Part shown: piece by piece, positions 24,301 through 43,535 of the stretch
Position numbering within the stretch: the stretch's first letter is position 1
How the letters are laid out: each line of letters opens with the position of its first letter
Origin: a virus
Taxonomy: Duplodnaviria > Caudoviricetes
Length of the DNA stretch: 64,000 nucleotides
Virus record (IMG/VR): IMGVR_UViG_3300045999_004281
Location: 1,819-65,818 of that record
Strand: one strand, 5' to 3'
Translations under genes and position numbers: made by a program
The notes under the pieces: model-generated
What the model was told of the DNA's origin: nothing
What the model saw: only the letters and a program-made list of their open reading frames with translations
Database searches by the model: none

Positions 24301-27300
24301 CCGGCGAAGGTGGCAAGTACGCGCAGCTATTCCAAGAATGGATTAAGACCAACCTCGACCAGAACACGGTCGATGTGCTCAACGACCTGATTGAGATGCA
24401 TCGGCAGAGTGCCCGTGAGGACATAAAGTACGACGCGGCCAGAACCGCTTACAACAGGGCACAGGACGCCTACGCTGAGAAGGCTCGGCAGCAAGCGGAG
24501 AAGAACACCGGCGTCAAACTGCCCAAGGCACCCAAGCGAGTGAGTGAGCGCGTGCCTGAGACGGAAGCTGGTGAACAGGAAGCTGAGCCGGAAGCGCCTA
24601 AAGTTCCGGCAAAAAATCTGCCACGCCGTCAAGAGTTGTTCCGTGTTCACCCGGATATTGAACGCGTATTGACGACGGGCAATACCCGCAAGGCGCTGGA
24701 GCTGATCGCCAAGTCCAAGGGCAACCCGTACTACGCGGTGCTGGCCGATCGGCTGCTGGCCGCCAACGTCACCGCCAAGACGACGTTCATCGACCAGAAC
24801 GACATGCAGGCGCTGACCGAGCCGGACAACACCGTGCTCGACAGCTACCTCCGCGCCATGAGTGACATGGTGACGGAAACGTATTCGCCAGAGCAGCAAG
24901 CCACACTGATCCCGATGCTGCAGTCGGGCCGTCTGCAGGATGTGGTGGCGGCGCTGACCGAGATGCGGGCGACGCTGGCGAGCACCAAAGCCACGCAGGG
25001 TCAGATCGACGCCTTCAACGAGGTCGTCGCCTACGTCAACAAGCAGTACGGCTGGGTTGCCAAGTACGACCCGAACACCGACACCATCGTGATGCGCCGT
25101 GGTTCGGGCATGACCAATGCCACGTTCCTGCACGAGGTGCTGCACGCCGCCACTTCCATCTATCTGGACAACCCCGAGTCGCTGACCGGTATCCAGAAGC
25201 AGGGCTACGACCAGCTCATGGAGCTGTACAACTACGCCAAGGGCATGCTGTCGGCGCAAGGGTTTGCGGTGGAGCACATTTACGCGCTCAGCGACCCCGA
25301 CCCCAAACAGGGACTGCACGAGTTCGTGTCGGAGGCACTGACCAACCCCGAGTTCCAAGCGCAACTACGCGCTCTGCGATACAAGGCATCACCCTTCTCG
25401 CTGGCCAACTGGTTTACGGACGCGATCCGTAAGCTCTTCAACATCAAGAAGGGCTACGAGAGCAACGTACTGAACGAGGTCATCTTCGCCAGCGACGCGA
25501 TGATGCTGGGCACGACCCAAGGCAAGGATCGTCTGGTGGCTACCACCGGTGCCAAGGCCGCACCGGGGCCCAAGATCCCCACGGTTCCCAAGGGCCGCGC
25601 CAACATGCCGGGTGTGAACCGGGCCATGTTCAACGCCCTGCTCAAACCGAAGAACTGGAGCCAGATCCGCCCGCTGTGGCCCACGTTCTACGCCAACCTC
25701 AAGTCGGACGTGCGCCCGGCGTATCTGGGGGCGCTGACGCTGGATCAGCTTGCTGACCTAGTCAACAAGCGCCTACCGCAGCTCGACAACTTCATCCGGG
25801 TCACCGGCGAGTTCCTCTCTCGCAAGAATGCCATCCTCACCGAGGCGTCCGACATCTCCAAGCGCTGGGAGCAGTTGCAGTCCCGTGATGCCGACATGTC
25901 TCGGGATCTGGGTGCGGTCATGCACGCCGCCACCATCCGCGAGTTCGATCCCGACCCGCTGGTGGCGAGCACTCCGGCTGAGCGGGCAAAGAACGCCGAC
26001 ATCCTCAATATGTGGAGGAAGCTCAACCCGGAGGCCAAGGCCATCTACCGGGAGGTGCGCAACTTCTACGAGCGCCGCTACTCCGAGTACCGCCGTACGC
26101 TCAACCGCCGCCTGATGGCGATGAAGGCGTACGGGGTGTCCGATGTCACGATCAACGAGATCCGTGCGGAGTTCGACAAGGCCAAGCGCAAGGGGCCGTA
26201 CTTCCCGCTGATGCGTCACGGCCGGTTCGCCTACGAGATCGGCAGTGGCCGCAGCCGCGAGTACTACATGTTCGAGTCGTTGGGCGAGATGGAGATGCAC
26301 ATGCAGGAGCGTCTGGCAGCAGACCCGCACCTGCGCAGCACCGTCCAGCCGTTCTACGACTACAAGGAGTCCATGGACGCGCATGCTCGGGAGTCCAACT
26401 TCCTGCGCACGACGTTCGAGGCGATCGACTCAGCCCCCGTCACCGCCGCTGGCATCGACAAGCAGGCGCTCAAGGACGAGGTGTATCAGACGTGGCTGGC
26501 GAACCAGCCTGAGAGCAGCTTCCGCAACCGGTTCGTGCACCGCACCAACGTGGAAGGCTTCTCGCAGGACGCACTGCGCAACTTCGCCACGTCGTCGTTC
26601 CACATGGCCTACCAGCTCTCGCGGTTCGAGTACTCGCCTGAGATGTTCTCGCAGATGCAAGCCGCCAAGCAGCAGCTCAAGGCGCGTATCGACCCCGCCA
26701 ACCCGGCTGATCCGGAGGTGATCCGTGAGAACACCGAGCTGAGCGACTACGTCAAGGAAGCTGAGCGGCGTCTGGATTTGACACTGAACCCAACGGACGT
26801 GGGCACCTTCCCGTCGACGCTGTCGAACATCGGCTTCATCTGGTACTTGTCGTCGTTTGGTTCTGCTGCCGCCAACATTCTGGGCGGCATGATCATCGGC
26901 CTGCCTACGCTCGTGGGCCAGCATGTGCGCGCCAACCCCCGGCTGTCGTACACCAAGGCGACGCTGGACGCGCTGGGCCAGATGAAGAACGCCTTCGGGC
27001 AGATCATGATGACCGGTTTCGACTACGAGACCGGACCCCGTGTGCGTGACTTCTCGCTGAAGTCTCCGTCGCTCCAGCGCTCCGGCACGCTCAGCCGTGT
27101 GGATCAGGCCGCGTACAACCGCTTCGTGGCCGATGGCGTGATCGACATCACCGGCACCTACGATATGTCGGGCCTTGCTGCGACCCCCACCGAGTACTAC
27201 TCTGGGGTGCGCAACAAGACGATGCAGGTGCTGACCTACCTGTTCCACAACGCCGAACGCTTCAACCGCGAGATCATCGCGATGTCTGCGTTCCGTCTGG

Positions 27301-28415
27301 CGATGGAGAAGCGCGCGGGCATGGCGAACCGGCAGCAGGCGTTCACCGAGTCGATCCAAGAAGCCAAGAACACGACGAACGCGTCGATGTTCAACTACTC
27401 GTCGACCAACAAGCCGCGCTACTTCCAGCATCCGGTCGCTCGGGTTGTGCTGCAGTTCAAGCAGTTCCCGCAGCAGATGACGTGGTTCCTGAGCCGCAGC
27501 CTGTGGAAGTCCTTCGCAGCGGCGGACCCTGAGGTCCGTCGGGAGGCCCGTGCCCGCTTCGTGGGCACCATGGGTATGACCGCTATCTTCTCCGGTGCCA
27601 CCGGTTTGTGGGGCTTCAGCACCGTGGCCTCGATCATCAACGCCTGCGCGGCGCTGTTCGGGGGCGACGACGAAGAGCCGTTTGACTTTGAGCTTGAGTT
27701 CAAGAACTGGATCGTCAGCACCTTCGGCAAAAACCTTGGCACTGCGATCACCAGCGGTGCGTTCAACGCTGCGGGCGTCGACCTCGGTAGCCGCGTGAAG
27801 CTCGACGACATGTGGTTCCGCGACAGCCGAAAGAACCAAGACGAGGTGGAAGCAATTAAGACTTTCATTGTCGACATGTTGGGCCCGACTGTTGGTATAG
27901 GTGTCAACGTGTTCGAGGCCGTGAAGCTATGGAACGAAGGGCACCCCGACCGTGCTCTGGAGACCATCGCCCCGGCGTTCATCAAGAACCCGATGGTCGC
28001 CTACCGATACGGCAAAGAGGGTGTGAACACTTTATCCGGTGACCCGCTCATGGAAGACATGGGTCCGTTCCTGCTGATGATGCAGTCCCTTGGCATTCGG
28101 TCGGCAGAGCTGGCCGAGCGCCAGTACTACAACATCACGAAGAAGGGTCAGGAGGTCGAGATCCTCAAGCGCCGCACCAACCTGCTCAACGGCTTCGCGA
28201 TCACATTCATGTCCAACGACCCGGAAGGGTTCGACAAGGCTCTGGACAAGATCATGGAGTTCAACGAGAAGTATCCCTCGGTGCGCATCCCCATGAGTTC
28301 GCTCACCCGGTCGATCAAAGAGCGCATGGAGAAGTCTTCGCAGACTGACCACGGCCTGTTCATCGATCCGCGCCTGCGCGAGCAGCTCCTCAACGAGACC
28401 TACATGGACGAGTAA
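21339..28415 (+). CDS. Giant (2358 aa) ejection protein 3 / large polyvalent protein with zincin-like peptidase domain
   Basis: HEVLH at 25131-25145 then HEFVSEALTNPEFQ; YFPLMRHG and QFKQFP motifs in the C-terminal half; last gene of late operon. Confidence 0.75.
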   Translation: MAQGFSFADALQPPPPAKREEPAGGFSFTEALQPPVKPEQPVGGFSFAEAARPVDEAARRDELAMGQEFVTGVKRAATVDLPSLWENAKVLKDAGAAATVAQRMELFGRIDSGEITSMDQLRGLDLTTSQARSYLAASPEMRTKLKERLTRELGSRKDLINASLETLKAYQEAGGKLRSRVDKFTSIEDPTDFANWLASNVGSGAVNLAPIILAAATTGPAGLLATGAAMGTAESVGNRLEALQKTLAETPPEKRAQVVADRLKETGGVDLAVGITSGALDSVLGPAAKAAKFTAQEVLRQGRTQAAKTALKELPKDVASEFVTGGAQSLVQTAGKVGVGEQEKFLTRQTFVDALNDAAAEAAGASSGTAFNAARAALAAGKTPQEARRIATEPTLLDSLSEGEDVAGFDQTADRAGAGVAGVPGAPVGAERTQRAEPSGVVPAEPVAGEPAGREAAQPSAVSPLADFRRQYNDLRGEMLELMNITSPTQADTNRMKLVQRDLNQLLTDNSETLSAFSRDPELLNRLSNPVFDGNRLLADMETAAEVSTGRARAATGDMFGKRDTLDLPNRALAIAGQDPAKATAYLQGLLQRTKERLPTISADSNWGRMMAPTVGMTAREGFDDPAKVAQLYIQRQEQAVADAISRITPAQGQARAQQGDLFGEGKPEADINAAVDKLEALFAPKPRTATEEFGAEVPGEEAPAPTAAEAQQAAEQEQRRREAKETVVAPEVSTERVLETPAGKTIKRFFDLLRPANQSQSEVSKHQASKNSAANTLLEYDIARPGQQDLPGLQRALDYLAKKVGGIEKLNALIESLDGASSAEQAALLRKAGLPDLTSRRGIDSFRDTVQREVQELTIKGEGVKLPSRSTPSKITGTPIPYKEELTAGTSRAVAPGPFADGTPRKPYKEQETRQFFISDTKLRAAVRVLKQLVQSKLPITKEGAAAVTYLTNPLRESFGAALNALAFDLAMYEVDPDGYGANALHPGEGGKYAQLFQEWIKTNLDQNTVDVLNDLIEMHRQSAREDIKYDAARTAYNRAQDAYAEKARQQAEKNTGVKLPKAPKRVSERVPETEAGEQEAEPEAPKVPAKNLPRRQELFRVHPDIERVLTTGNTRKALELIAKSKGNPYYAVLADRLLAANVTAKTTFIDQNDMQALTEPDNTVLDSYLRAMSDMVTETYSPEQQATLIPMLQSGRLQDVVAALTEMRATLASTKATQGQIDAFNEVVAYVNKQYGWVAKYDPNTDTIVMRRGSGMTNATFLHEVLHAATSIYLDNPESLTGIQKQGYDQLMELYNYAKGMLSAQGFAVEHIYALSDPDPKQGLHEFVSEALTNPEFQAQLRALRYKASPFSLANWFTDAIRKLFNIKKGYESNVLNEVIFASDAMMLGTTQGKDRLVATTGAKAAPGPKIPTVPKGRANMPGVNRAMFNALLKPKNWSQIRPLWPTFYANLKSDVRPAYLGALTLDQLADLVNKRLPQLDNFIRVTGEFLSRKNAILTEASDISKRWEQLQSRDADMSRDLGAVMHAATIREFDPDPLVASTPAERAKNADILNMWRKLNPEAKAIYREVRNFYERRYSEYRRTLNRRLMAMKAYGVSDVTINEIRAEFDKAKRKGPYFPLMRHGRFAYEIGSGRSREYYMFESLGEMEMHMQERLAADPHLRSTVQPFYDYKESMDAHARESNFLRTTFEAIDSAPVTAAGIDKQALKDEVYQTWLANQPESSFRNRFVHRTNVEGFSQDALRNFATSSFHMAYQLSRFEYSPEMFSQMQAAKQQLKARIDPANPADPEVIRENTELSDYVKEAERRLDLTLNPTDVGTFPSTLSNIGFIWYLSSFGSAAANILGGMIIGLPTLVGQHVRANPRLSYTKATLDALGQMKNAFGQIMMTGFDYETGPRVRDFSLKSPSLQRSGTLSRVDQAAYNRFVADGVIDITGTYDMSGLAATPTEYYSGVRNKTMQVLTYLFHNAERFNREIIAMSAFRLAMEKRAGMANRQQAFTESIQEAKNTTNASMFNYSSTNKPRYFQHPVARVVLQFKQFPQQMTWFLSRSLWKSFAAADPEVRREARARFVGTMGMTAIFSGATGLWGFSTVASIINACAALFGGDDEEPFDFELEFKNWIVSTFGKNLGTAITSGAFNAAGVDLGSRVKLDDMWFRDSRKNQDEVEAIKTFIVDMLGPTVGIGVNVFEAVKLWNEGHPDRALETIAPAFIKNPMVAYRYGKEGVNTLSGDPLMEDMGPFLLMMQSLGIRSAELAERQYYNITKKGQEVEILKRRTNLLNGFAITFMSNDPEGFDKALDKIMEFNEKYPSVRIPMSSLTRSIKERMEKSSQTDHGLFIDPRLREQLLNETYMDE

Positions 28416-28443
28416 AAAAGCCCCGCCGGGTGAGGGCGGGGCT
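28414..28443 (-). terminator. Rho-independent terminator
   Basis: 9-bp stem AGCCCCGCC/GGCGGGGCT with A6 on + strand (U-tract on - strand). Confidence 0.88.
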
Positions 28444-28481
28444 GTGAGGTCACTAGGAGGAGAAAGCAAATGTCAACTTGC
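28414..28481 (-). ncRNA. Candidate trans-acting anti-RBS small RNA (~68 nt)
   Basis: Between a TTGCGC-18-TACAAT promoter and a terminator; contains CAUUUGCUUUCUCCU complementary to RBS+AUG of several phage genes. Confidence 0.55.
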
Positions 28482-28691
28482 GAGCCGATTGTAGCGGTTC
28501 GTTCGCCAGACGCGCAATCCTCGTATCCCGTCCTCGATTACTACTTTAATGATCACGCGGTAGCCCAGCCGCCGCATCTTGGCCTCGATGCGGGCGCGGC
28601 CCTCCTCGTCATGGATACACGGCACGAAGAAGGAGCTGCCCACGGTGAACTCGGGCCAGTTGATCTGGTAGGTGATCCCGTCAATCACCAT
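28473..28691 (-). CDS. Small hypothetical protein
   Basis: INWPEFTVGSSFFVPC...GIRGLRVWR; start overlaps primase end. Confidence 0.7.
   Translation of the reverse strand: MVIDGITYQINWPEFTVGSSFFVPCIHDEEGRARIEAKMRRLGYRVIIKVVIEDGIRGLRVWRTNRYNRLAS
28488..28517 (-). promoter_or_regulatory. Sigma70-type promoter for candidate sRNA
   Basis: TTGCGC (28517-28512), 18 nt, TACAAT (28493-28488). Confidence 0.55.
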
Positions 28692-31539
28692 TTCCCGCCG
28701 GGGCAGCCGGGGCCACGCCCAGCAGGTCCGCATCAAACTCAAGGGCCACAACCGGCGGCGCATTGATCTCAGTGCCCACATCCAGCCGGGTGCGGACTTC
28801 GCCGAGGAACGCCCCGGTCTTGTTGAGCGCGGCCAGCAGGTCGATGAACGTGACCTGCTTGGTCACACAGTACTCCTTAAGTACCTGCCTGATGATGTAC
28901 AGCCGCTTGGTGTCCGGCTCGTAGCGCACGATCAGCGGGCCACGCGGCAGGACGATCGGAGCGGCGGCGATGTTGTTACGTGATGTGCTGTGCTTGTTTA
29001 CGACGAGGATGTTCAGGTTGTGTTGCAGCAAGAACTCGCCGACGATGGTGGCGTAGTCCTCGATACTCAGGCGGACCGCGCCTTGCATCGTTTTGACTTC
29101 TTCGACCACCCAATCAAATACGCGTTTGGTATTAATACCGTGTAGCCCGAGCTGCTTGCCAGCGATCAAGCTGCCCGCGATGTTGGCCGCCACGGTGGCT
29201 GACCAGAACCGCTCCCGCGTCTCGATGTTGACCGCCTCGTCGAACTTCTTCTGGACGCGCATGCAGTTGTCGATGCACTCCTCGAGGTTCTGGACGAGGT
29301 ACTGTGCGTAGGGCTGCCCGGCCAGTCCGTAGTTACTCTGCAATCTGCCGAAGATCCGCTTGGCCTCGCGCTTGTCGAGGTTCTGGGTCGGGTCGATCTT
29401 GTACTGCATCAGGCGCATCAGCTCGCCCTCGGACGTGGCCTTGAGCGCTTCGAGCTTGTCGGTCATGCTGGCGTTGGCGGTGCACACCATGATGGTGGCC
29501 CAGAACCCCTGCACATCCCGCTCCTCGTTGGCCGACGCCTTCATCCGGCGGCGCGGTGTGCCCTGTGTCACGCTATAGGCCAGATCCGAGAACTCGTCCC
29601 CGGTCATCTTGGTGATCTCGTCCACGCCCAGCGGCAGGTTGTTCATGACCGCCATCCGGTGCAGCTTCACGTTCAGGGTGTCGCGCCACTGGAGCATCAG
29701 CTCATCGGGGTGCCCCCAGACGCTGTTCATCACCTGCAGGATCGTGGACTTGCCGGTACCCGAGCGGTTATTGATCAGGTTGATGATGCTGCCCTTGATC
29801 CCCATGAACTTGAGCAGCGGCGCACCGAAGGCCGAGAATACCGCGAACGCGTGGGGCTCGAACCCCGGCATGTTGTAGGTGTTGATGATGTCCCGCCACT
29901 CATCCAAGCTGCCGGTCGGGCGCAGCGCCGAGGCTACGCTCTGGGTGGCCTTGGACGGAGGGCTGTAGCGAATGAAACTCGGGCCGATCTCGCGATCACC
30001 CAGAATGAAGCGGCTGTCCTCGTCGGCCCAGCCAAACTGAACCCGCATCATTTCTAACTCCTGTTCGACCTGCAGTTCCTTGGCGCAGGCGACCAAGTAG
30101 TTCAGGATCAGATTCATCTGTGCTGGCAGGGCGATCACACCGTGGAAGGACAGCACCTTGCGTAGCTCGTCCTTGCTTAGCGCGTCGACCAGCGTCAGCG
30201 AGAACTCTTTGACTTTATCTTTGGGCAGCGACAGGCGGATCAAGACCGTCTCGCCGTGCGACGGGTCGTACAGCCGCTTGGTGATGAAGAGGTCGTACTC
30301 GTAGACCAGCGCGAAGCCGGTGCCCTCGGTATCCTCTTCGCTCTCGGCCTTGACGGTCATATAGATGCCGCCCTTCTTGCCGCGAAAGTACCGCCCCGGG
30401 AGCTTGGGTACGACGAAGGTGTTGTCGGCCGTGGGGTCGGCGACCTCAAAGTTCGTCACGCCCGCCGGAGCGGCTACGACCTCCCCCGGCTCAGACCTCG
30501 CGATCTCGTGTCCGAGCACGATGGGGGACTTGATCTTGCCCCAGTGCGGGCAGTTCGGGCAGATGCCCGGCGAGAACTCATCGAAGGTGTCGCAGGTGTA
30601 GGGCCCCTTGATCGCAGCGGCCTTCTTCTCGGTAGCGGCTGCGTCGTACCCGGGGTGCTTGCTGGAGATGAAGTGGACCGCTTTCTCCCTGTCCACGCAG
30701 TGCTGAGCGATGGACAGCCCCGCCCGCCACATCGGCTCGTCGGCCTTGTGCTGGTTGGTGATGATGTACTTGAGCTGCTCGCACCCGGTGCCCTTCTCGG
30801 TCTTGAGAAGGATGGTCTTGAACCGAGACTGCTTGTTGCCCATCAGCGCCTTGGTGAAGCTGTCGAGCTGGCTGGTCGCGTTGGGCTTTTTGCGTGGCTG
30901 CAGCGGGCCCAGCTTGGCGACGAAGTCGTCGTAGCTCATGGGCTCGGCGCGGTGCATGAGCACCACGTCGTGCGGTGGGTTGTCTTTGAAGTTCTTGGTT
31001 CCCGGGATGCGCAGCACTCGTGCCGCGTCAGCGGGAACATCAGGGTCGATGTGGAAGCCATGGCTCATGCACTGAGCCTTGAACGTGTGCGCAGCGTCGA
31101 GCCACTTCTCGCGCTCGATCGGCTCGGTCAGCGGCCAGTAGACGTGCCAGCCTCGGCCGGAGTTCACGATGGTTGGGCGTGGCAGCGACAACGCCTTGCA
31201 CAACTCCTTGAGTGCCGCGAACCCAGTGGGCTGATCGATGTAGCCCTTGATCCGCCCACGCTCATCAGGCTCAGCCTTGGTCGGGCCGCAGTCGATGTCG
31301 AGGAAGAAGGACTGCATCCAGCCGCAGTTGTCGGCGGTGCGGTTCTCATCGGTCTTGAACTTGCCCACGGCGAAGAACGCGTCTTGCCCGGCTGCAACAA
31401 TCTTGTCTGCGGCTGCTTCGACTTCTTCAAGAGTCTTGTAGTGTGATTGTGATTTGATCTTCCCCTTGTACAGGGCGACCACGCAATACCATCCCTCCAC
31501 CGATGGCACTACGTCACGAAGCAATTGGATGTCCGCCAT
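28681..31539 (-). CDS. Primase-helicase (N-terminal prim-pol-type primase, DUF927-like region, P-loop helicase)
   Basis: FFLDIDCG, SGRGWHVYW, RVLRIPGT; CPNCPH; Walker A RSGTGKST; Walker B LGVDEIT. Confidence 0.88.
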   Translation of the reverse strand: MADIQLLRDVVPSVEGWYCVVALYKGKIKSQSHYKTLEEVEAAADKIVAAGQDAFFAVGKFKTDENRTADNCGWMQSFFLDIDCGPTKAEPDERGRIKGYIDQPTGFAALKELCKALSLPRPTIVNSGRGWHVYWPLTEPIEREKWLDAAHTFKAQCMSHGFHIDPDVPADAARVLRIPGTKNFKDNPPHDVVLMHRAEPMSYDDFVAKLGPLQPRKKPNATSQLDSFTKALMGNKQSRFKTILLKTEKGTGCEQLKYIITNQHKADEPMWRAGLSIAQHCVDREKAVHFISSKHPGYDAAATEKKAAAIKGPYTCDTFDEFSPGICPNCPHWGKIKSPIVLGHEIARSEPGEVVAAPAGVTNFEVADPTADNTFVVPKLPGRYFRGKKGGIYMTVKAESEEDTEGTGFALVYEYDLFITKRLYDPSHGETVLIRLSLPKDKVKEFSLTLVDALSKDELRKVLSFHGVIALPAQMNLILNYLVACAKELQVEQELEMMRVQFGWADEDSRFILGDREIGPSFIRYSPPSKATQSVASALRPTGSLDEWRDIINTYNMPGFEPHAFAVFSAFGAPLLKFMGIKGSIINLINNRSGTGKSTILQVMNSVWGHPDELMLQWRDTLNVKLHRMAVMNNLPLGVDEITKMTGDEFSDLAYSVTQGTPRRRMKASANEERDVQGFWATIMVCTANASMTDKLEALKATSEGELMRLMQYKIDPTQNLDKREAKRIFGRLQSNYGLAGQPYAQYLVQNLEECIDNCMRVQKKFDEAVNIETRERFWSATVAANIAGSLIAGKQLGLHGINTKRVFDWVVEEVKTMQGAVRLSIEDYATIVGEFLLQHNLNILVVNKHSTSRNNIAAAPIVLPRGPLIVRYEPDTKRLYIIRQVLKEYCVTKQVTFIDLLAALNKTGAFLGEVRTRLDVGTEINAPPVVALEFDADLLGVAPAAPAGNGD

Positions 31540-31563
31540 TTTTATCCAGAAACGTCAAGAAGA

Positions 31564-31620
31564 AGGGGGTGACAGGGGCCGACGGTTGCCCCTTTCGCTC
31601 CGTCGAGCTAGTCACCCCCT
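31564..31620 (-). ncRNA. Candidate structured cis-regulatory RNA (three-way junction with kissing loops) in primase leader
   Basis: Perfect 10-bp P1, 6-bp P3, 3-4-bp P2, and 6-nt loop-loop complementarity CGACGG/CCGTCG. Confidence 0.6.
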
Positions 31621-31626
31621 AAACCG

Positions 31627-31851
31627 TCACAAGCCGGGGAAGTTCTGCTCAATCAACCTGCGGTGTGTCGGGCCCGGCTCATTCACACCGGCGAACCAGT
31701 TGTAAACAGCTTGCCTCGACACGCCCAGCAGCTCAACGACTTGAGCCACCGGCACGCCCTGACGGATGCAGTACCTCCCCAACCGTACACCCAGCTTGCG
31801 CTTGTCCGCTTGGCGGTTGCGCTGCTGGAGGTGGAGGGTGTAACCGATCAT
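31627..31851 (-). CDS. Cro/HTH DNA-binding protein
   Basis: VAQVVELLGVSRQAVYNWF helix-turn-helix. Confidence 0.8.
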   Translation of the reverse strand: MIGYTLHLQQRNRQADKRKLGVRLGRYCIRQGVPVAQVVELLGVSRQAVYNWFAGVNEPGPTHRRLIEQNFPGL

Positions 31852-32762
31852 TAGTCGTCACCCCACTCATCCACCAGCGTGCTCAGACCCGAGGCTTTCT
31901 TGGGCTCGGCCGCAGGCTTGGCGGCTTTGGGCTTCTCAACAGGCGTGAACTCTTGGACTGGCTCTTCCACCTGCTTGACCAGCTTGGCGGCAGCGGACCC
32001 GGCAGGGGCCACCAGCTTGGGCATCGCGGGCACAGCCGTCGCTGCGGTGTCTTTCTTCTTGAAGTTCAACTTGCCCGCGTTGACCGCGATGGGCGACTGG
32101 CCCTGATCAACGGCGATCTGGTAGGTGTCGGTGTCGAGGAACTCCAGATTGCTGAAGAACAGCTTGGGCACGTCGCTGTCCAGATCGAACGACATGCGGG
32201 TGGCCAGCATGTTCAGGTTGAAGCCGGAGTTGCCAACGAAGCGGGCGTACTGCAGGAAGGGCATGTGCTCCATGTCACCAGAGCCGAAGATCGACTTGGA
32301 GGGCAGCACCAGTTGGTAGATGTCGCCGCTGGGGTTGTTGGTCAGCACCACGGCCAGACGCATGGAGAAGCGGCACTGGGCCTTGCTGCCACCGCCGGAG
32401 CCCTTGATGGCGCGCGGGCAGTCCTTGCAGTTGTGAGCCTGCGGGTCCTCCACGTCGGCATCCGGGCGCTCACCGTCGCTCGACCAGCAGTCCGGGGTAG
32501 AGGTCTCGTCAGCGTTGTAGTCGCTCTTGTAGAACGTCTTCTGCACGGTGGTCGAACCGTTGACCACGATCACGTCCAGATGCGGGTCGGTGTTCTTGGC
32601 GATCTCCTTGCCGCCGTCGACGAGGCGGAAGACACGCCCGCGAAGCGAGATGCGCTTGACGCTGCCGCCGCTGCTGGTGAACGCCTTGGTGAAGTCGTCC
32701 AGCTTGACGTGCTGCAGATGGGCGGGCAGGTTGCCCTTGAAGGTTTGGATCTCGGTGGACAT
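31851..32762 (-). CDS. Single-stranded DNA-binding protein (phage type)
   Basis: RISLRG..F; PDCWS.DG..PD; C..CP...GSG...CRF; acidic C-terminus DEWGDD; replication module context. Confidence 0.7.
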   Translation of the reverse strand: MSTEIQTFKGNLPAHLQHVKLDDFTKAFTSSGGSVKRISLRGRVFRLVDGGKEIAKNTDPHLDVIVVNGSTTVQKTFYKSDYNADETSTPDCWSSDGERPDADVEDPQAHNCKDCPRAIKGSGGGSKAQCRFSMRLAVVLTNNPSGDIYQLVLPSKSIFGSGDMEHMPFLQYARFVGNSGFNLNMLATRMSFDLDSDVPKLFFSNLEFLDTDTYQIAVDQGQSPIAVNAGKLNFKKKDTAATAVPAMPKLVAPAGSAAAKLVKQVEEPVQEFTPVEKPKAAKPAAEPKKASGLSTLVDEWGDD

Positions 32763-32765
32763 TGC

Positions 32766-33170
32766 TTACTCTCCTTGGTTTTTGCGGCGTACCGTCACCG
32801 CGTAGCGACTATCGACATTCAGCCCGGCAGGGTACTCGTCGGGGTGTTCTTCCAGAAAATCTTTCATGTTGCCGTTGTGGATGCGCTTCTCGAGCAGGCC
32901 GTACGCCTTGTGCTTCTCGATCAGCTTGTACACGGCGTCCCAGTTCGAGGGGTTGTAGCGCTTGCGCACGCTGCGCATGATGACCGCGTTGTCGGTACTC
33001 ATGCTGTTGCTGTTGACCTCGTTGAGGGTGGTGAGCAGTTGGGCCTCGATCTCGGCCATGGCCTTCTCGAGTTCGCCGTCTTCGGCGGTGAATCGCTCTT
33101 TGAGTAGCTCGCGCTTCTGGCGAAGGCGAAGGTATTGCTGGGACAGGTCGTCCATGTCTGACATTTGCAT
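32766..33170 (-). CDS. Conserved replication-module protein
   Basis: Coiled-coil N-terminus; NWDAVYKLI...LLEKRI...PAGLN; AGGAG RBS (start may be 33164). Confidence 0.75.
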   Translation of the reverse strand: MQMSDMDDLSQQYLRLRQKRELLKERFTAEDGELEKAMAEIEAQLLTTLNEVNSNSMSTDNAVIMRSVRKRYNPSNWDAVYKLIEKHKAYGLLEKRIHNGNMKDFLEEHPDEYPAGLNVDSRYAVTVRRKNQGE

Positions 33171-33191
33171 CTCCTAGTGTGAGAGGGTGTA

Positions 33192-33220
33192 ATTGTGTGA
33201 GTCTGTCTGGACTTTGTCAA
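33192..33220 (-). promoter_or_regulatory. Sigma70-type promoter with overlapping dyad
   Basis: TTGACA-17-CACAAT; CTTGACAAAGTCCAG imperfect palindrome over the -35. Confidence 0.6.
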
Positions 33221-34782
33221 GTACCCAGCAGCTCTTTTTTGTAGAGATCGACGAGTTTTTCGTGTGCGTCGATATTGCCCTGCAGCATTGCGTACAGCCG
33301 GTTCTCAACGGGGCTGCCTTGAATGTGCACCACCGTCATGGCGTTGCGCTGACCGGGGCGGTTGATGCGGGCGTTGGCCTGCAGATACGTCTCGGTGGAC
33401 GTGACAGGAGCGTACCAGATCACCGTGTTCGCGGCGGTCAGGGTAACCCCGTGCGCAGCGGACGACGGCTGGATCACAAGAACCCGAGGGTCCGGCTTCT
33501 CTTGGAACTGCTTGAATACTTCCGTGCGCTTTCTCACCGGCACGTCGCCGTGGATCACGTCGTTGGTGATGCCCGCCTTGGTCAGGTGAGCCGCCAGCAG
33601 CTCGATGGTGTGCCGGAACGGCACGAACACCAGCACCTTATGGCTGGCCTCGCTGATGACCTCCTCCACCACGCGCAGCCGCTCGGACACGTCGAAGTGG
33701 ATCACGGTGCCAGTGTCCGTGTACACCGCACCGCCAGAGATCTGCAGCAGCTTGTTCATCTTGGCCGCTGCGTTGACCGCGCTGACTTCCTCGCCACCTG
33801 TCTCGAGTAGTAGTTCGTCTTTCAGCTCTTTGTAGTACTTGCGCTGCTCGGGCGTCATGGCCGCGATGCGCGTCATGTGCGTCACCTCCGGCAGATCCAG
33901 ACACTGCTCCTTGGTGAAGCGGATGGCAGGCTGGAGCATGTCGAAGACGATCTTCTCGGCTTCGGGGCGCGGCTCCCACCGATACATCCCGAACTGCTGC
34001 ATGACCGACTCGCGGAAGTCACCGAAGAATCGAGGGCAGCGGTTGGGGACGCACAGCCTGCCCAGCCCGAACGCATCCACCGGCGACTGGGCGGCGGGGG
34101 TGCCGGTCAGCATCCACAGCCACTTGTCGTCGGTGACCAGCTTGCGCATCAGCTTCCAGCGCTTGGTCTGCACGTTCTTGTATGCGTTGGCCTCGTCGAT
34201 GACGATGAGGTCAAAGCCCCCCTTCTCGATGCTCTCGGAGATGGCGGGAATACCGTCGTAGTTCACGATGACAAACTCGGCCGGGCCACGGACGATCTTG
34301 TTGCGCTTGTCTGCGGTGCCATACGCCACATCGACGGAGCGGTGCACGGCGAACTTAAAGAGGTCCGCCTGCCACGCCGACTGCATGATGGACAGCGGAC
34401 AGACGATCAACGCCCGCTTGATGACGCCCATCTTCATCAGGTAGTCAGCCGCCCAGATGACGCTGGCGGTTTTGCCCGTACCCTGTTCGTTGAAACAGAA
34501 CGCGCGCTTCTGCAGAGTCAGGAACGCCGCCGTCTCCTTCTGGTGATCGAACGGGTTGATGCCCAGCGGGCGCGGCCACTTGTAGTCCCGCGTGATGGTG
34601 GACGGCACGTTCTTGATGTTCAGCTTGCTGAGGATCAGGCTCTCCTGAATCCCCCAGTTGACCGACACCTCGTACCGACCGTCACCGTAGTTGTTGACGA
34701 CCTTGCTCTCCGGGATCGTCTCGATGATCCGGGCAGGGTTGCGGGTTCTTACAACAAGCGTCTTGTTCGCCAGTACTTGCAT
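33217..34782 (-). CDS. SNF2-family (SF2) helicase
   Basis: EQGTGKT, IVIDEAN, LTGTP, HGVTLT, QANARINRPGQ. Confidence 0.92.
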   Translation of the reverse strand: MQVLANKTLVVRTRNPARIIETIPESKVVNNYGDGRYEVSVNWGIQESLILSKLNIKNVPSTITRDYKWPRPLGINPFDHQKETAAFLTLQKRAFCFNEQGTGKTASVIWAADYLMKMGVIKRALIVCPLSIMQSAWQADLFKFAVHRSVDVAYGTADKRNKIVRGPAEFVIVNYDGIPAISESIEKGGFDLIVIDEANAYKNVQTKRWKLMRKLVTDDKWLWMLTGTPAAQSPVDAFGLGRLCVPNRCPRFFGDFRESVMQQFGMYRWEPRPEAEKIVFDMLQPAIRFTKEQCLDLPEVTHMTRIAAMTPEQRKYYKELKDELLLETGGEEVSAVNAAAKMNKLLQISGGAVYTDTGTVIHFDVSERLRVVEEVISEASHKVLVFVPFRHTIELLAAHLTKAGITNDVIHGDVPVRKRTEVFKQFQEKPDPRVLVIQPSSAAHGVTLTAANTVIWYAPVTSTETYLQANARINRPGQRNAMTVVHIQGSPVENRLYAMLQGNIDAHEKLVDLYKKELLGT

Positions 34783-35036
34783 TACTTCATAGACCCATCC
34801 GGGTTCCGTTTGAAGGAGCGGTTCTTGGACGGAGCCTGCAACCGCACACCATCTTTGTTCGAGCCACCTTTGCTCAGCGCCTTGACGTGAGCGACATCTT
34901 TGCCAGTGCGGTCGATGCCCTTAGCGTCCAGCTTGCGGCGGGCGCGCTGGCGCTCCAGCTTGGCGGGGATGTCCCCGCGCTCAAGTTGCTGTTGGTACTC
35001 TTTCTTATACGGGCGGGGTTTGTTGACGTAGGGCAT
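34782..35036 (-). CDS. Small HNH-like endonuclease
   Basis: KDVAHVKALSKGGSN...KNRS. Confidence 0.65.
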   Translation of the reverse strand: MPYVNKPRPYKKEYQQQLERGDIPAKLERQRARRKLDAKGIDRTGKDVAHVKALSKGGSNKDGVRLQAPSKNRSFKRNPDGSMK

Positions 35037-35214
35037 GTTGGTCCTTCATGTGCGCGATGGCGTGGTAGGTAAGACGGGCCTCGGCTGCGGCTTCGAGCGC
35101 GAGCTTCATGGCCTCGTCGTATTTTCCTTCCAGCACCGCGTTGTGTAAATCCCGCAGGGCCTTCTCGGCGGCCATGCACGGGGCGGCGTAGTCAATCAGA
35201 GTGTCTTGCTTCAT
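35005..35214 (-). CDS. Hypothetical protein
   Basis: Operon packing; LIDYAAPCMAAEKALRDLHNA. Confidence 0.65.
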   Translation of the reverse strand: MKQDTLIDYAAPCMAAEKALRDLHNAVLEGKYDEAMKLALEAAAEARLTYHAIAHMKDQHALRQQTPPV

Positions 35215-35468
35215 AGGATTTGTCCTGCTCGTGAGTAAACGGTGAATTGTTTGACGCTGATAAGGCGTTGGGCGTGCGACTTCTTGGACAAGCCCGCCAC
35301 GTGGCTGATGTCGCGACCGTTAATTCGCTCCCGCTCGATGTGTGCGGTCTGCTTGATCGAGTTGTTCAGGGAGTTCTCCAGCTTGGCCGTAACGAAGATC
35401 GACGGGCGGTCATCGTCCTTCCAGTGGAACGGGCTGCCCGGAGGGCATTTGCATTTAGGTTTTGTCAT
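35211..35468 (-). CDS. Hypothetical protein
   Basis: Coupled start (ATGA) at 35468. Confidence 0.55.
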   Translation of the reverse strand: MTKPKCKCPPGSPFHWKDDDRPSIFVTAKLENSLNNSIKQTAHIERERINGRDISHVAGLSKKSHAQRLISVKQFTVYSRAGQIL

Positions 35469-35650
35469 TTCTTCTCGGTAACGGTGGTGCTGGTGTTGGT
35501 GGGGAGTATGCGCGGGCAAATGTCGTTGCCCAGCTTCCGGACTGCTTCTGACATCTCACGTTGCATCTTCATGGTTATATCCGTCAGATCATGACTGTCG
35601 TACACCGCCACCCAGAACCGCACATTTACTTCGTACTCTTTAAGTTCCAT
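35465..35650 (-). CDS. Hypothetical protein
   Basis: GAGGA RBS; start 35650. Confidence 0.55.
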   Translation of the reverse strand: MELKEYEVNVRFWVAVYDSHDLTDITMKMQREMSEAVRKLGNDICPRILPTNTSTTVTEKK

Positions 35651-35987
35651 TTCGTTTTGTCCTCTTCGTCGATATGTTGTTCCGCATCGCAATCGTGCTG
35701 ACCATGTTGTCACTCAGTCCGAAGTCGATCGCGATGGTCGCGTGTTTCTCTCCGGTCTTCAGGCGCTCGATGATCTTTTCGTTTCTCTGTGTCAGCGCCA
35801 CCCGCTTCGCCACCGCCTTCATGTGGGGCGCCATGTGTTTTTTGATCGTCTTCAGGCACCCGTCATCCATTTCGTATGTGGAGAAGCGGTGCTTACAGTG
35901 GGTGCACTCCCTTCTGCGCCTCAGCATCGTCTCTACCATTCGGGTATCCAGCACTGCGGTCTCCCGCCCACATCTCACACAGTTCAT
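35640..35987 (-). CDS. NrdR-like N-terminal Zn-ribbon protein with C-terminal HTH
   Basis: CVRCG..TAVLDTR...RRRRECTHCKHRFSTYE; HATIAIDFGLSDNMVSTI. Confidence 0.75.
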   Translation of the reverse strand: MNCVRCGRETAVLDTRMVETMLRRRRECTHCKHRFSTYEMDDGCLKTIKKHMAPHMKAVAKRVALTQRNEKIIERLKTGEKHATIAIDFGLSDNMVSTIAMRNNISTKRTKRNGT

Positions 35988-36135
35988 CCTCTAGGTTCCC
36001 CATGCACTCGGCCCAACCCAGCAGCATGTACCAGACGTAGTCATTGCGCGGGGTACGTTCAAAACAGAAATGTGCCATCGCCAGATAGTTGTCGGCTGCG
36101 GCCCACCAGCGGCTGCGTTCGTAGTCAGGATGCAT
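35893..36135 (-). CDS. Hypothetical protein
   Basis: GGAGG RBS; overlaps downstream gene by ~95 nt. Confidence 0.4.
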   Translation of the reverse strand: MHPDYERSRWWAAADNYLAMAHFCFERTPRNDYVWYMLLGWAECMGNLEDELCEMWAGDRSAGYPNGRDDAEAQKGVHPL

Positions 36136-36346
36136 CCACCACCTCCAGCAGTTGTTTCTTGCACCGCTCAAGCAGCCACAGAGCCGTGCCACCATCGGCG
36201 TAGGTTGAGGCAAAGAACTCGTCGCCCTCTGGTGTAAGACCCACGATCACAAAACCTTCAAACTTGCCCTTGAGGTTCTCAAGGATGATGTCCGGGTCAA
36301 GGTCTAACCTAGTGATGCCACCGAACGGAATGATCTTGGCTGTCAT
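36125..36346 (-). CDS. Hypothetical protein
   Basis: Coupled start; ITRLDLDPD...FFASTYADGGTALWLLERCK. Confidence 0.7.
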   Translation of the reverse strand: MTAKIIPFGGITRLDLDPDIILENLKGKFEGFVIVGLTPEGDEFFASTYADGGTALWLLERCKKQLLEVVDAS

Positions 36347-36519
36347 GCTTCACTCCCCGCATGAATCCATTTCTTTGGCGAGTAGGCCGCCGCTGACGCA
36401 ACCACCGCCAGCGCAAACCACCAGCCACTGTGGCCCAGCGCGAACACCGCGTAGCCAGTGCCGCCCCAGATCAACGTCTCGTATAACACGATGTAGATTA
36501 GATAGGTCACGTAACTCAC
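36343..36519 (-). CDS. 58-aa membrane protein (not in ORF track)
   Basis: GTG start overlapping upstream stop; two hydrophobic segments (YLIYIVLYETLIWGGTGYAVFAL; WWFALAVVASAAA). Confidence 0.6.
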   Translation of the reverse strand: MSYVTYLIYIVLYETLIWGGTGYAVFALGHSGWWFALAVVASAAAYSPKKWIHAGSEA

Positions 36520-36815
36520 GCTCCCTCCTTCGCGGCTTTGGTGGCGGCGTTCTTCTCAAGCAATTTGTTATTGGCCCACACCATTCCCTTGATGAAAAAA
36601 TCATGGTCGTACATGGGGTCCGCGCCATCCGGCATGTCGTCTTTTTCTAGTCCAGCCCACGCTATCGGTTCCTCGACCTGCTCGGCGCAAACCTGAAGAA
36701 TCCACTGCTTCAGCGCCTCGAACTCGTCCGCCCCCACCCATGAGTGCCGATACTGCTGACAGACCTCGTAGAAGTCTTGCGAGTCGAGCGCCTGCTTCAC
36801 GGCCTCAATGTTCAT
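36516..36815 (-). CDS. Hypothetical protein
   Basis: GGAGG RBS; coupled to neighbours. Confidence 0.6.
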   Translation of the reverse strand: MNIEAVKQALDSQDFYEVCQQYRHSWVGADEFEALKQWILQVCAEQVEEPIAWAGLEKDDMPDGADPMYDHDFFIKGMVWANNKLLEKNAATKAAKEGA

Positions 36816-37135
36816 AGCGTCCTCCCACCACTACTGCTCGCGCACGGCCACGCACGGCGCAGCACCAACCCCACGAGGCGGTCGGCGGTGTTGTGACGGT
36901 TGTCCGGGTTGGCCTCCAAGTAGTTCCTGACCATGTCGGTGACTTGGCCCGCAGTGACGTTGCCCGGAGGGCAGTGCGTGACGCCTTGCAGCGTGTCGTA
37001 GACGCCCGTGATGTAGCCGATGGCGTGGATGTAGTCGGTTGTGTCCCCGCGTAGCTGCGACAACAGTTGGTTGCCAGTCTTGAACTCAGCGTGAGCGGAG
37101 CCGCAGAGGAGAAGCAGGGCGAGTGCGCGTTTCAT
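36812..37135 (-). CDS. Secreted Rap1a/Tai-like immunity-family protein
   Basis: Signal peptide (AHA); TGNQLL...GYITGVYD...CPP...GQVTDMV..YL..NP..RH..A...L..AWPC. Confidence 0.75.
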   Translation of the reverse strand: MKRALALLLLCGSAHAEFKTGNQLLSQLRGDTTDYIHAIGYITGVYDTLQGVTHCPPGNVTAGQVTDMVRNYLEANPDNRHNTADRLVGLVLRRAWPCASSSGGRTL

Positions 37136-37251
37136 TTCTCGCCCATCTCCGCTTCGTCTTTGGCCAGTACGTAATCAAGGTACTCGTGCACTGCGTGCAT
37201 CGCGAGACACCCAATAGCCAGACCGATAGCTAGTCCAAGAACAAAGCTCAT
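37132..37251 (-). CDS. 39-aa membrane peptide (not in ORF track)
   Basis: MSFVLGLAIGLAIGCLAM...; ATGA coupling at both ends. Confidence 0.55.
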   Translation of the reverse strand: MSFVLGLAIGLAIGCLAMHAVHEYLDYVLAKDEAEMGEK

Positions 37252-37433
37252 TTCAAGCACTCCCAGTATTTGAAGTTCCACACAGCCTTGCCGCCCGTGG
37301 ATTCACAGGCCAGCTTGAAAGCCGCCTCCGTCTGCCGAGTACTCTCGTTTGCCGTCCGGACCAAAGTGACGAACCCGAGGGTGAGCGCGACCACAACGCC
37401 CGCTGCTACACCGGTGAAAATCGGAATCTTCAT
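37248..37433 (-). CDS. Small membrane-anchored protein
   Basis: N-terminal TM; C-terminal CESTGGKAVWN...ECL. Confidence 0.6.
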   Translation of the reverse strand: MKIPIFTGVAAGVVVALTLGFVTLVRTANESTRQTEAAFKLACESTGGKAVWNFKYWECLK

Positions 37434-37612
37434 TTCACCCTCCGCACCGGCTGCTCCCACTCGTGATAGATCTTCTCCGGAGGCGGGGCGGGACGGCCCT
37501 CACTGGGCGGCACCCAGCCAAACCTGCGCCACGTGGCCTGCACGTCAGCGCCACGCTGATAGCTGAACTTGATGTCGGTCACGGGGACCGAAGGCATGGT
37601 CTTCTTGATCAT
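37430..37612 (-). CDS. Hypothetical protein
   Basis: AAGGAG RBS; DVQATWRRFGWVPPSE. Confidence 0.65.
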   Translation of the reverse strand: MIKKTMPSVPVTDIKFSYQRGADVQATWRRFGWVPPSEGRPAPPPEKIYHEWEQPVRRVK

Positions 37613-38013
37613 TTCATGCTCCTTTCCGCCAGCGCGGCTTTGGTCTGAGCTACGGCCAGATTCATTTCCTCTCTGTACATATCGGTGAGTGTGACGCTGT
37701 TGGCTGTGATAGCGCCACCCATCTGTATCTTCGTTGCGTACTGCTCATGCGAGTACTCATGTTTAAGAGGAGGTGCCGTCATAACCTCCAGCACCTTGGC
37801 TGTGAAGACCAGACGCGTGGCTTCTTTGAGGGCAGCGGCAACTGCGGCTTGCTCCTCAGCGGTAAATACGTCGTTGCTAGCAGCGTACTCTGCGAGGTTG
37901 CGCCATGAATCACTGTTCATGACATACAAATTCTTTGCGCTGAACCCGGGTGGTGCAAAGTCCTCGGGGTTCGTCTTCATCCGCTCGATCAGGATAAGAA
38001 CTCCGTCATTCAT
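37609..38013 (-). CDS. Hypothetical protein
   Basis: AGGAGAAG RBS; MNDGVLILIERMKTNPEDF. Confidence 0.7.
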   Translation of the reverse strand: MNDGVLILIERMKTNPEDFAPPGFSAKNLYVMNSDSWRNLAEYAASNDVFTAEEQAAVAAALKEATRLVFTAKVLEVMTAPPLKHEYSHEQYATKIQMGGAITANSVTLTDMYREEMNLAVAQTKAALAERSMK

Positions 38014-38032
38014 CTGCTTCTCCTAGTTGGGT

Positions 38033-38100
38033 GGGGCCTACTCGCTGCGTCTGGTGCTCAGTGCACATGGGGCGTACCCGCAGCATCCGCTTTCGGCCCC
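38033..38100 (-). ncRNA. Candidate structured intergenic RNA with loop-E (GAA/AGUA) motif
   Basis: GGGGCC/GGCCCC stem closing GAAA...GAGUA; inner GCUGCG/CGCAGC stem. Confidence 0.45.
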
Positions 38101-38104
38101 GAAA

Positions 38105-38572
38105 TCAAACCTCTTTGCCTTCCAGCCGGTCAGCAACCAGCTTGGCGTAGCCCGCGATGTCGATCCACGAATCCGCATAGTCCGGGTCACCGTTGACGAT
38201 GCGCCCGAGCTTGTGACAGATCATGTCCATCGCCTCGGCTTGGTCATAGGCAAAAGTTCTGCCATGCTTCTCGGCGTGGGCGCGTAGAACGTTCTTGAGT
38301 TTGTACGTGACTTCGGCGTGGCCCTTGAACGTGCCGTACCGCTTGCCGCGCTCGATCAGGGTTGCATCTACATTGGTAGTTGCGGGTGGGGCGGCCTTCC
38401 TCACCTCGTCGGCAACCTCGTCAAGCGACTTGTTGTTCAGCTCCTTGTTCAGCTTCCCCCGCACAATGTAGACGTACGCCTTGGAAGTCTTGAACTTGTT
38501 GGCAACCTCTTCGGCCTTGGCGCTCGGGTGGGCGAGCATGTAGTTACGGATCTTGGCTGCTGTCGATTTCAT
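38105..38572 (-). CDS. DUF6378-like protein with N-terminal HTH
   Basis: LIERGKRYGTF...DMICHKLGRIVNGDPDYADSWIDIAGYAKL. Confidence 0.75.
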   Translation of the reverse strand: MKSTAAKIRNYMLAHPSAKAEEVANKFKTSKAYVYIVRGKLNKELNNKSLDEVADEVRKAAPPATTNVDATLIERGKRYGTFKGHAEVTYKLKNVLRAHAEKHGRTFAYDQAEAMDMICHKLGRIVNGDPDYADSWIDIAGYAKLVADRLEGKEV

Positions 38573-38581
38573 TTCTTTCTC

Positions 38582-42646: not shown

Positions 42647-42678
42647 GTGGATCCTGCTTTAACGCTGCGGGAGGATCC

Positions 42679-42706
42679 ACTCTACCGGAAAACTGGAGGA
42701 TGTCAA
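42679..42706 (-). promoter_or_regulatory. Sigma70-type promoter of replication operon
   Basis: TTGACA-16-TAGAGT upstream of VRR-NUC gene. Confidence 0.65.
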
Positions 42707-42736
42707 GAAAATTTTATGGGGGTAAATACTACCCCT

Positions 42737-43532: not shown

Positions 43533-43535
43533 CCG

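Follow-up and report, generated by a model that had tools for sequence, protein, structure and literature searches.

What is encoded at the point where the two gene blocks of a lake-water phage converge, and does it act on the phage's own genes? The window (the whole stretch of DNA analyzed here) covers 64,000 bases of a complete lake-water virus record, IMGVR_UViG_3300045999_004281 (Caudoviricetes), which has 65,818 bases in all. Its late block lies on the plus strand and closes with a gene for a protein of 2358 amino acids (aa) that ends at 28415; its early/middle block occupies the minus strand from about 53966 down to 28473, closing with a replication operon of about 4.7 kb that encodes p132, p303, a helix-turn-helix (HTH) protein, a primase, and p72. 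At 28414-28517 on the minus strand, the promoter-like TTGCGC-18-TACAAT, a core complementary to ribosome-binding sites (RBSs), and a strong terminator can be read directly in the sequence, as stated in the original prediction, which saw here a small RNA that shuts off a regulon of early genes. From anatomy, conservation, complementarity, and covariation, all of them computed, we consider it reasonably probable that this element is a conserved phage anti-RBS riboregulator, that is, an RNA of about 65 to 75 nucleotides (nt) that would consist of a 5' hairpin, an exposed CU-rich anti-Shine-Dalgarno (anti-SD) seed, and an intrinsic terminator.

Anatomy and conservation of the element

The element takes up the final 15 codons of p72 (coding positions 28473-28517, including the region of the candidate promoter, with the stop codon TGA at 28475-28473), a 29-nt 3' untranslated region (3'UTR), and a strong terminator. 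Its parts, and the gene in which it begins, are as follows.

28473-28691, minus strand: p72 (72 aa), last gene of the replication operon; its start overlaps the primase stop (ATGGTGA), and it contains the candidate promoter
28512-28517, minus strand: -35-like hexamer TTGCGC, within the codons for a conserved G-L-R of the 72-aa protein
28488-28493, minus strand: -10-like hexamer TACAAT, 18 nt from TTGCGC, candidate promoter of the small RNA's own
28466-28481, minus strand: 5' hairpin GCAAGU-UGAC-AUUUGC (fold prediction; weak), with the p72 stop codon (28475-28473) in its loop
28444-28472, minus strand: CU-rich seed CAUUUGCUUUCUCCUCCUAGUGACCUCAC, which contains the invariant anti-SD core UCUCC; single-stranded for the most part, with the 5' end inside the weak hairpin
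28414-28443, minus strand: intrinsic terminator (terminator scan), stem AGCCCCGCC/GGCGGGGCU followed by U6

The terminator stem (28443-28419) has nine pairs, eight of them G-C, followed by T6; on the plus strand no T tract follows the hairpin, which makes it a terminator of the minus strand only. The seed is unpaired in the minimum-free-energy fold. Folds of nine family members, together with the terminator scan, likewise place a single-stranded seed beside stable structure and a Rho-independent terminator.

Primase searches yielded loci at 30-95% identity, 16 of them viral and 19 from metagenomes. The closer relatives all share the same order after p72 (TTGCGN, 17-19 nt, TAnAAT, hairpin, pyrimidine stretch with UCUCC, terminator); thus, the promoter/anti-RBS/terminator cassette is kept at the same convergence point, as the original prediction had anticipated. 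The UCUCC core is present in every element and its position between hairpin and terminator is constant over 30-95% primase identity, while the flanks differ; the gap between the pyrimidine stretch and the G+C-rich terminator is 8-25 nt. The hairpin is mostly GCAAC-N5/6-GUUGC in relatives, with GAGCAAC/GUUGCUC and AGUGU/ACACU as variants. Even in L012, where the primase is 37% identical and an extra gene follows p72, a CU-rich stretch and a terminator still end the operon.

RNAalifold on a MAFFT alignment gave the terminator only, because hairpin 1 was misaligned, and a hand-given structure with a covariance model (R1) was used instead. R1 was built from six sequences (the window, L002, L006, L008, L009, and L010), which match it by construction. 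Outside these six, it found one copy each in L003 and L015 (E<1e-6), 12 matches in 12 of the 19 metagenome loci, and one copy per genome in G011-G014, with one strong and one weak copy in G015; relatives at 68-95% primase identity carry a single copy per genome at the same location. A motif scan of viral contigs returned 29 stretches, and R1 located the element in 12 of the 25 that were searched with it; by our estimate about 30 chance matches to the loose pattern are expected, which fits the 13 loci that fail R1. In an alignment of 22 sequences, pairing is kept in 96.3% of the modelled pair cells, and in 98.7% of those that belong to the seven terminator pairs.

No Rfam 15 family matched at its gathering score; all 11 listed matches lie below, the best being RF00519 (22.6 bits versus 41). 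The weak resemblances (mmgR/suhB, RF00519; Betaproteobacteria toxic small RNA, RF02278; sX13, RF02232; 15-23 bits against gathering scores of 41-50) have in common with the element that they are short RNAs ending in a terminator, and the element is not a member of these families. All three families carry C/U-rich seeds.

A separate start of the RNA is suggested by the -10 hexamer. Among 26 elements it reads TACAAT in 18, TAGAAT in six, TAAACT in one, and TACACT in one, so that TAnAAT is present in 24 of 26. The hexamer stands at three frame offsets from a conserved W codon (offsets in L004 and L008 were read by eye, the automated pattern having caught an earlier TGG there) and encodes Y-N, T-I, or V-Q-Y, or contains the stop codon TAG, and the C-terminal tails of p72 differ in length and sequence. 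Because the hexamer is kept across frames and a stop codon while the protein tails vary, it is the nucleotides and not the protein that are conserved. At the -35 position, TTGCGN or TTACGG lies 17-19 nt upstream of the -10 in 25 of the 26 elements, and L076 has TTGCAA-17. In three phages whose terminase and portal proteins are 51% and 60% identical to those of the window, a free-standing element with TTGCAA-17-TACACT does not follow p72; it occupies the divergent region ahead of the late genes, with the first early gene on one side and the terminase-portal block on the other:

L076, 855-926, minus strand: free-standing copy
L080, 2446-2517, minus strand: free-standing copy
L084, 3045-3116, plus strand: free-standing copy

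The -10 box is thus a candidate promoter of the element's own, from which the RNA is probably also made alone; it may instead be a processing site.

Complementarity to the phage's own translation starts

The best conserved predicted target is the head of the replication operon itself.

32766-33164, minus strand: p132 (132 aa), first gene of the replication unit
33157-33180, minus strand: leader and start region of p132, best conserved predicted target, rank 2 of 89 start regions
33192-33220, minus strand: sigma-70-like promoter TTGACA-17-CACAAT, 10 of 12 consensus matches, 0.2 expected in shuffles

The two-part match noted earlier at this site is real: the predicted duplex of element and p132 start has an energy of -28.6 kcal/mol, with blocks of 11 and 9 pairs containing exact matches of 9 and 10 nt, and none of 500 core-preserving shuffles was as good. 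A -10-like box lies at the same place upstream of p132 in relatives. With this predicted promoter directly upstream, p132 heads a transcription unit, in agreement with the original prediction, and its leader would be about 20 nt long, nearly all of it pairing with the seed. The accompanying claim that the gene starting at this site leads a unit for a single-stranded DNA-binding protein (SSB) and primase found no support for p132 as an SSB, its matches being a weak one to DUF7307 (Pfam) and PHROG 13900.

When seeds and p132 starts of different phages were crossed, own pairs had a mean energy of -21.0 kcal/mol versus -16.8 (9 genomes) or -17.6 (15 loci) for foreign pairs, energies that leave out the accessibility of target and seed; the permutation p value (<=2e-5) is inflated by near-duplicates. 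Against core-kept shuffles, the own p132 pair was equaled in 0 of 500 for G001 and gave p values of 0.004 for G003, 0.006 for G005, and 0.048 for G006; the own pair with p303, the next gene, gave 0.004 for G004, 0.016 for G001, and 0.018 for G007. The better of the two starts ranks 1-3 among all starts in the window, G001, G004, G005, G007, G011, and G014 (Fisher p 0.003 for the operon-head ranking over 13 not fully independent genomes). Leader and seed flank both differ between the window and G001 (leaders CACACUAGGAG versus CACUUUAGGAG; flanks CUCCUAGUG versus CUCCUAAAGU), and a one-base change of the spacer between the window and L051 (GCAAAUG versus GCAAUG) is matched in the seed (CAUUUGC versus CAUUGC).

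In the window, the seed finds further partners among small early genes. The 15-mer AGGAGAAAGCAAATG was used as query; it is found exactly at 28458-28472 (plus strand) and 48405-48419 (minus strand), with one mismatch at 45483 and 50067, with two at 48703 (12 contiguous bases at 48706-48717), and with three at 45325 and 45968 (all minus strand). At up to three mismatches there are nine matches versus 1.27 expected, a number reached by none of 100 shuffles, and every match on the minus strand coincides with a predicted gene start. The matches claimed at 48405, 50067, 45483, and 48706-48717, and the weaker ones, are all present in the sequence. The four strongest are as follows.

48405-48419, minus strand: RBS and ATG of a 66-aa early gene (48207-48407), 15 of 15 bases complementary to the seed
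50067-50081, minus strand: RBS and ATG of a 67-aa early gene (49866-50069), 14 contiguous complementary bases
45483-45497, minus strand: RBS and ATG of a 53-aa early gene (45324-45485), 14 of 15 bases complementary
48703-48717, minus strand: RBS and ATG of a 100-aa early gene (48404-48706), 12 contiguous complementary bases

The 100-aa protein was not found in the five relatives searched. Late genes differ, as the original prediction stated: they mostly use AAGGAG or TAGGAG with other spacers, and none of the 42 late start regions has 9 or more contiguous bases complementary to the seed. Pairing energies of the window seed are lower for early than for late start regions (median -17.9 versus -13.15; p 1.2e-5), whereas a generic 16S tail, taken as control, treats the two alike (p 0.54).

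The same comparison was extended to relatives (G numbers, genomes or fragments) by matching each phage's own seed to its own same-strand start regions (-25 to +10) over at least 10 contiguous bases, with 300 shuffles of the flanks that keep the UCUCC core as control. Matches were found at 4 of 47 start regions in the window (p 0.003), 5 of 41 in G003 (0 of 300 shuffles), 4 of 34 in G012 (p 0.007), 1 of 15 in G014 (p 0.04), and 1 of 20 in G001 (p 0.08). A multi-gene signal is significant in three of the seven near-complete genomes, namely, the window, G003, and G012. Start regions on the opposite (late) strand gave no matches in 13 of 14 genomes.

The matches follow lineage-specific flavours of the RBS. 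In the window, the seed flanks CAUUUGCUUUCUCC and CUCCUAGUG correspond to the early flavour GGAGAAAGCAAAUG (spacer plus AUG) and also CACUAGGAG; the G001 seed UCUCCUAAAGU pairs with ACUUUAGGAGA, the G003 seed CUCCUUGGUU with AACCAAGGAG at four genes, and the seed CUCCUUGAU of G012 and G014 with AUCAAGGAG at five and two genes, respectively. Each flavour motif has several sense copies at gene starts, and its antisense copy occurs only at the element in four of the five genomes checked (G012 has a second, at 62118). Foreign seeds seldom match, off-diagonal entries of the cross-matrix being mostly 0-1. Complementarity is clear in the lineages of the window/G001, the G003 type, and G012/G014, and in G004/G005 for operon-head genes. 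In several lineages, not in all, the seed thus appears to have retained its complementarity to start regions of the same phage, and its flanks covary there with that phage's early RBS flavour, as had been proposed.

Candidate function, rival explanations, and known systems

We propose that the element forms the 3' end of all minus-strand transcripts of the replication operon and, when started from the conserved -10 box in the last gene, a discrete RNA species. In the cell, as we infer, the seed would pair with the phage's own early and middle translation starts and cover SD, spacer, and AUG. Its main partner would be the leader of the replication operon's first genes and, in the window phage, its further partners would be the small early genes with GGAGAAAGCAAAUG as their common RBS. 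By keeping the 30S subunit from binding, pairing would repress these targets, and the timing would follow the RNA, the targets being turned down as it accumulates; either the replication unit would be under feedback control or early genes would be shut off.

Because the leader of the first genes in the element's own operon is the partner predicted most consistently, feedback fits at least as well as a global switch. The regulon of early genes under one RNA that was originally envisaged fits the window, G003, and G012, with their multi-gene signals, and not the four other near-complete genomes. Likewise, of the early-to-late switch only part stands: early starts of the window pair better than late ones, and the difference is weak or absent in the six others. 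A global early-to-late switch is possible but beyond the data. A more far-reaching version, which we put forward tentatively and rather doubt, is that a family of uncultured freshwater phages has an RNA that would mimic the 16S tail, co-evolve with a phage-specific RBS dialect confined to early and middle genes, outcompete ribosomes on all messages of this class, and spare late genes, as an RNA counterpart of the T4 proteins RegA and RegB; copies would then close the replication operon and, in some phages, open the early region.

Several observations weigh against the element being an anti-RBS riboregulator. The multi-gene signal is lacking in G002, G008, G013, and G011, four of the seven near-complete genomes. 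At 10 nt or more, G013 has one match in 49 start regions (p 0.09), G006 one in 39 (p 0.14), and G004 one in 42 (p 0.19), and G002 (94% complete), G005, G007, G008, and G015 have none; G011, also without a match at 10 nt, becomes significant only at the 9-nt threshold (three matches; p 0.027). Among the seven near-complete genomes, the energy gap between early and late starts is significant in the window and marginal in G003 only. L051, the closest relative (95% primase identity), has lost the upstream block of the p132 pairing, and on the L051 start region the seed of L051 itself takes rank 11 of 15; in G002/L004, G008, and part of the G010-type group, nothing is seen beyond the core. The genomes are related, which leaves about four to six independent covariation events. 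Gene calls and start sites in the 15 genomes or fragments come from our own simple codon-model caller. Hairpin 1 varies on both sides in two of its four modelled pairs (11 cells), a count made on the model-fitted alignment and hence a modest support. In L004, L008, and L072/82/83, the p72 frame continues through the seed, which on a long mRNA would then be covered by ribosomes. Finally, the promoter claimed for the small RNA has both hexamers in the sequence and a conserved -10 (5 of 6 consensus bases by our comparison), but it lies within p72, a gene that the original prediction had missed, its -35 matches 3 of 6 bases, and a simple sigma-70 scan does not report it (below threshold); moreover, with the -35 inside conserved codons, conservation of that hexamer is uninformative.

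An alternative is that the element is an ordinary 3'UTR and terminator, whose pyrimidines would have no pairing role, serving for example termination or stability alone, and would match RBSs by chance and because any stretch with CUCC fits an SD. Extended complementarity is indeed absent from G002, G005, G007, G008, G013, and G015, the promoter is weak against the consensus, and the non-coding early regions of the window hold further pyrimidine runs with CUCC. We nevertheless regard this explanation as unlikely, because core-preserving shuffles seldom equal the matches of the window, G003, and G012 or the p132 pairs of the window, G001, G003, and G005, because the flanks change along with the start-region flavour by lineage, because the sole antisense copy of the flavour lies at the element in four of five genomes (G012 having its second at 62118), and because UCUCC is invariant and fixed in place over 30-95% primase identity.

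The main rival, improbable in our view as the whole account although it may coexist with action in trans, is that the element works in cis only: the CU-rich 3'UTR would fold onto the leader and RBS of p132 on the same mRNA and tune its translation or decay. The precedent is icaR of Staphylococcus aureus, whose 3'UTR carries an anti-SD motif (UCCCC) that pairs with the SD region of that mRNA (PMC3868564). The phage operon shows the corresponding arrangement: the anti-SD motif of its 3'UTR is complementary to the SD region of p132, the first cistron of what is predicted to be the same transcript. Pairing between the 5' and 3' UTRs of icaR inhibits translation. In agreement with action in cis, the p132 and p303 starts are the most consistent predicted partners, the sigma-70-like promoter just upstream of p132 would allow leader and element to share one transcript, and the element of L012 stays at the operon terminator despite the extra gene. 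However, icaR is a bacterial monocistronic mRNA with no separate promoter or free-standing copies known, whereas the element belongs to a phage, ends a polycistronic operon of about 4.7 kb, and has additional predicted targets elsewhere. Action in cis alone is also at odds with the TAnAAT, whose persistence in different frames and over stop codons suggests that the RNA starts separately, with the free-standing copy and its own promoter in L076/80/84, with matches to several distant early genes in the window, G003, and G012, and with those relatives in which p72 is translated through the seed, where the long mRNA would be unable to use it.

Two further explanations fare worse. The inverted motif copies at 28448-28479 and 33157-33180 could be sites for a recombinase or another DNA-binding protein, or the plus-strand RNA a decoy for a RegA-like repressor, an idea suggested by the way in which an inverted repeat of 9+10 nt brackets a 4.7-kb module with a small HTH protein; it is very unlikely, given that the module has the same orientation in all relatives, that the repeats contain SD and AUG and vary by bulges that RNA pairing tolerates, and that the -10 box, the 5' hairpin, and the minus-only U tract define an RNA of the minus strand. 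Least credible is that the plus-strand AGGAGGAGAAAGCAAATG is a real RBS and start, read on late transcripts that may pass the hairpin for want of a plus-strand T tract, and serving a short peptide or the 98-codon open reading frame (ORF) at 28470-28766, which has a strong SD, a 7-nt spacer, an ATG, and an open frame, since the start named as a rival in the original prediction is not conserved (ACG replaces ATG in L002, the frame is 10 codons long in L051, and other relatives have no start at usable spacing), the ORF has no PHROG match, and a codon model trained on the genome picks the antisense p72, which is present in 17 relatives. Neither a conserved start and frame nor coding-type codon usage was thus found for this ORF.

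Returning to the riboregulator, its nearest phage parallel is the c4 RNA of P1 and P7. This RNA and its target share a transcript, and the differences between P1 and P7 in c4 are matched by differences in the target. It is described, in excerpts of PMC12197685, as a short phage RNA that is complementary to the RBS region of ant and blocks its translation, the complementary stretches being thought to lie in loops. The element would resemble it as a short phage RNA directed against the RBS region of a phage gene. c4 lies upstream of a single target in the immI operon, a temperate immunity operon, and is not a general anti-SD RNA, whereas the element stands at the 3' end of a replication operon, has a UCUCC core like the 16S tail, and matches many genes in some genomes. 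The likeness is one of mechanism only; the element had no Rfam match at threshold, in a library for which the presence of c4 was not checked.

In its position, the element resembles bacterial small RNAs derived from mRNA 3' ends, which end at the terminator of the mRNA and are either processed from it or started at an internal promoter (PMC9438474, in excerpts); it shares the operon terminator and has a candidate internal promoter. In its proposed function, it is analogous to T4 RegA and RegB, by which a temporal class of mRNAs is turned off via a shared feature of translation starts; these effectors are proteins, whereas here the effector would be an RNA. RegA binds start regions. RegB cleaves within GGAG of early messages (PMC1702504), and translational repression in T4 has been reviewed (PMC3014915), both sources being cited from excerpts.

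To our knowledge, few regulatory RNAs of phages other than the model temperate ones have a known target. As far as the excerpted texts go, phage noncoding RNAs either act on a single gene or are mere candidates (PMC12197685, PMC10914365), and those of virulent Pseudomonas phages are putative, with no targets named and none described as anti-RBS (PMC10914365). Within the parts of the literature searched, with supplements outside the scope, we found no case of an RNA acting through a shared RBS to repress early or replication genes of the lytic-type phage that encodes it. For a phage known only from lake metagenomes, genome comparison alone has thus yielded an RNA family and a seed that are both defined, together with a small set of predicted targets that changes along with the seed, which makes a direct test possible by reporters and compensatory mutations. 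If the proposal is true, temporal or feedback control of translation would be written in a shared RBS dialect and read by one RNA, and the element would be a compact, portable, and programmable repressor module. If the regulation fails, it is still a conserved marker of the replication-operon 3' end in this phage group.

Neighboring genes and minor observations

The remaining genes around the element are as follows.

33217-34782, minus strand: SNF2-type helicase, among the last minus-strand genes
minus strand, next after p132 in the replication operon: p303 (303 aa)
minus strand, in the replication operon: HTH protein (74 aa)
28681-31539, minus strand: DUF927 primase-helicase

A megablast search with 27000-32000 gave no match in the phage collection, and with the primase as tblastn query the only matches were distant cultured phages, headed by Pseudomonas phage Rollin (29.5%). 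A look for RNA sequencing runs that contain this stretch found none. Contigs from four lake or freshwater DNA runs, compared over 28440-48439, differed nowhere in the element among the rows listed, a minority of all rows. A longest-ORF gene caller was discarded in favor of the codon-model caller, as it chose ORFs on the wrong strand.

Homologues of p72 follow the primase in 17 of the 19 relatives tested (27-88% identity), with W12, S20, F22, C25, E53, G58, R60, W62, and R63 invariant. The confident AlphaFold2 (AF2) model (predicted local distance difference test [pLDDT] score, 88.9) consists of a strand, a helix, and two long strands. No significant family match was found for p72; Foldseek against the PDB gave nothing at E<=0.001 (best, 0.22), and the best VIA-align Z score, 5.3, lies inside the range that the tool calls common. 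These structure searches were made with a possible role of p72 as an RNA chaperone in mind. Extended p72 frames run through hairpin and seed in L004 (6834-7085), L008 (6834-7073), and L072 (233-466), and that of L004 reaches into the terminator loop; where the frame runs through both, the protein tail is free to vary and the RNA motifs are kept.

Pyrimidine runs with CUCC on the minus strand (e.g., UUUCUUCUCCUCC) lie at 54328-54340, 52360-52370, 52478-52485, and 52504-52513, in two large non-coding control regions of the early block, and none of them is the RBS of a plus-strand gene. The run at 54328-54340 resembles the free-standing seed of L076, L080, and L084, located in the corresponding divergent region of those phages, but in the window it is not followed by a terminator, and a sigma-70 scan of 53900-54600 found no promoter.

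At four gene junctions on the minus strand (45324-45339, 45482-45497, 45967-45982, and 48404-48419), the upstream gene closes with G-[E/D]-[S/T]-K-stop and overlaps its successor by ATGA; the RBS of the successor, GGAGAnAGCAAATG or a close variant, is therefore coding, and the arrangement amounts to a repeated coupling module. The primase start (31539-31575, minus strand) lacks an SD in the window and in relatives; a conserved TTGACG stands about 20 nt ahead of its ATG, and farther upstream the sequence is rich in pyrimidines over a stretch. This start may be leaderless or have a structured leader.

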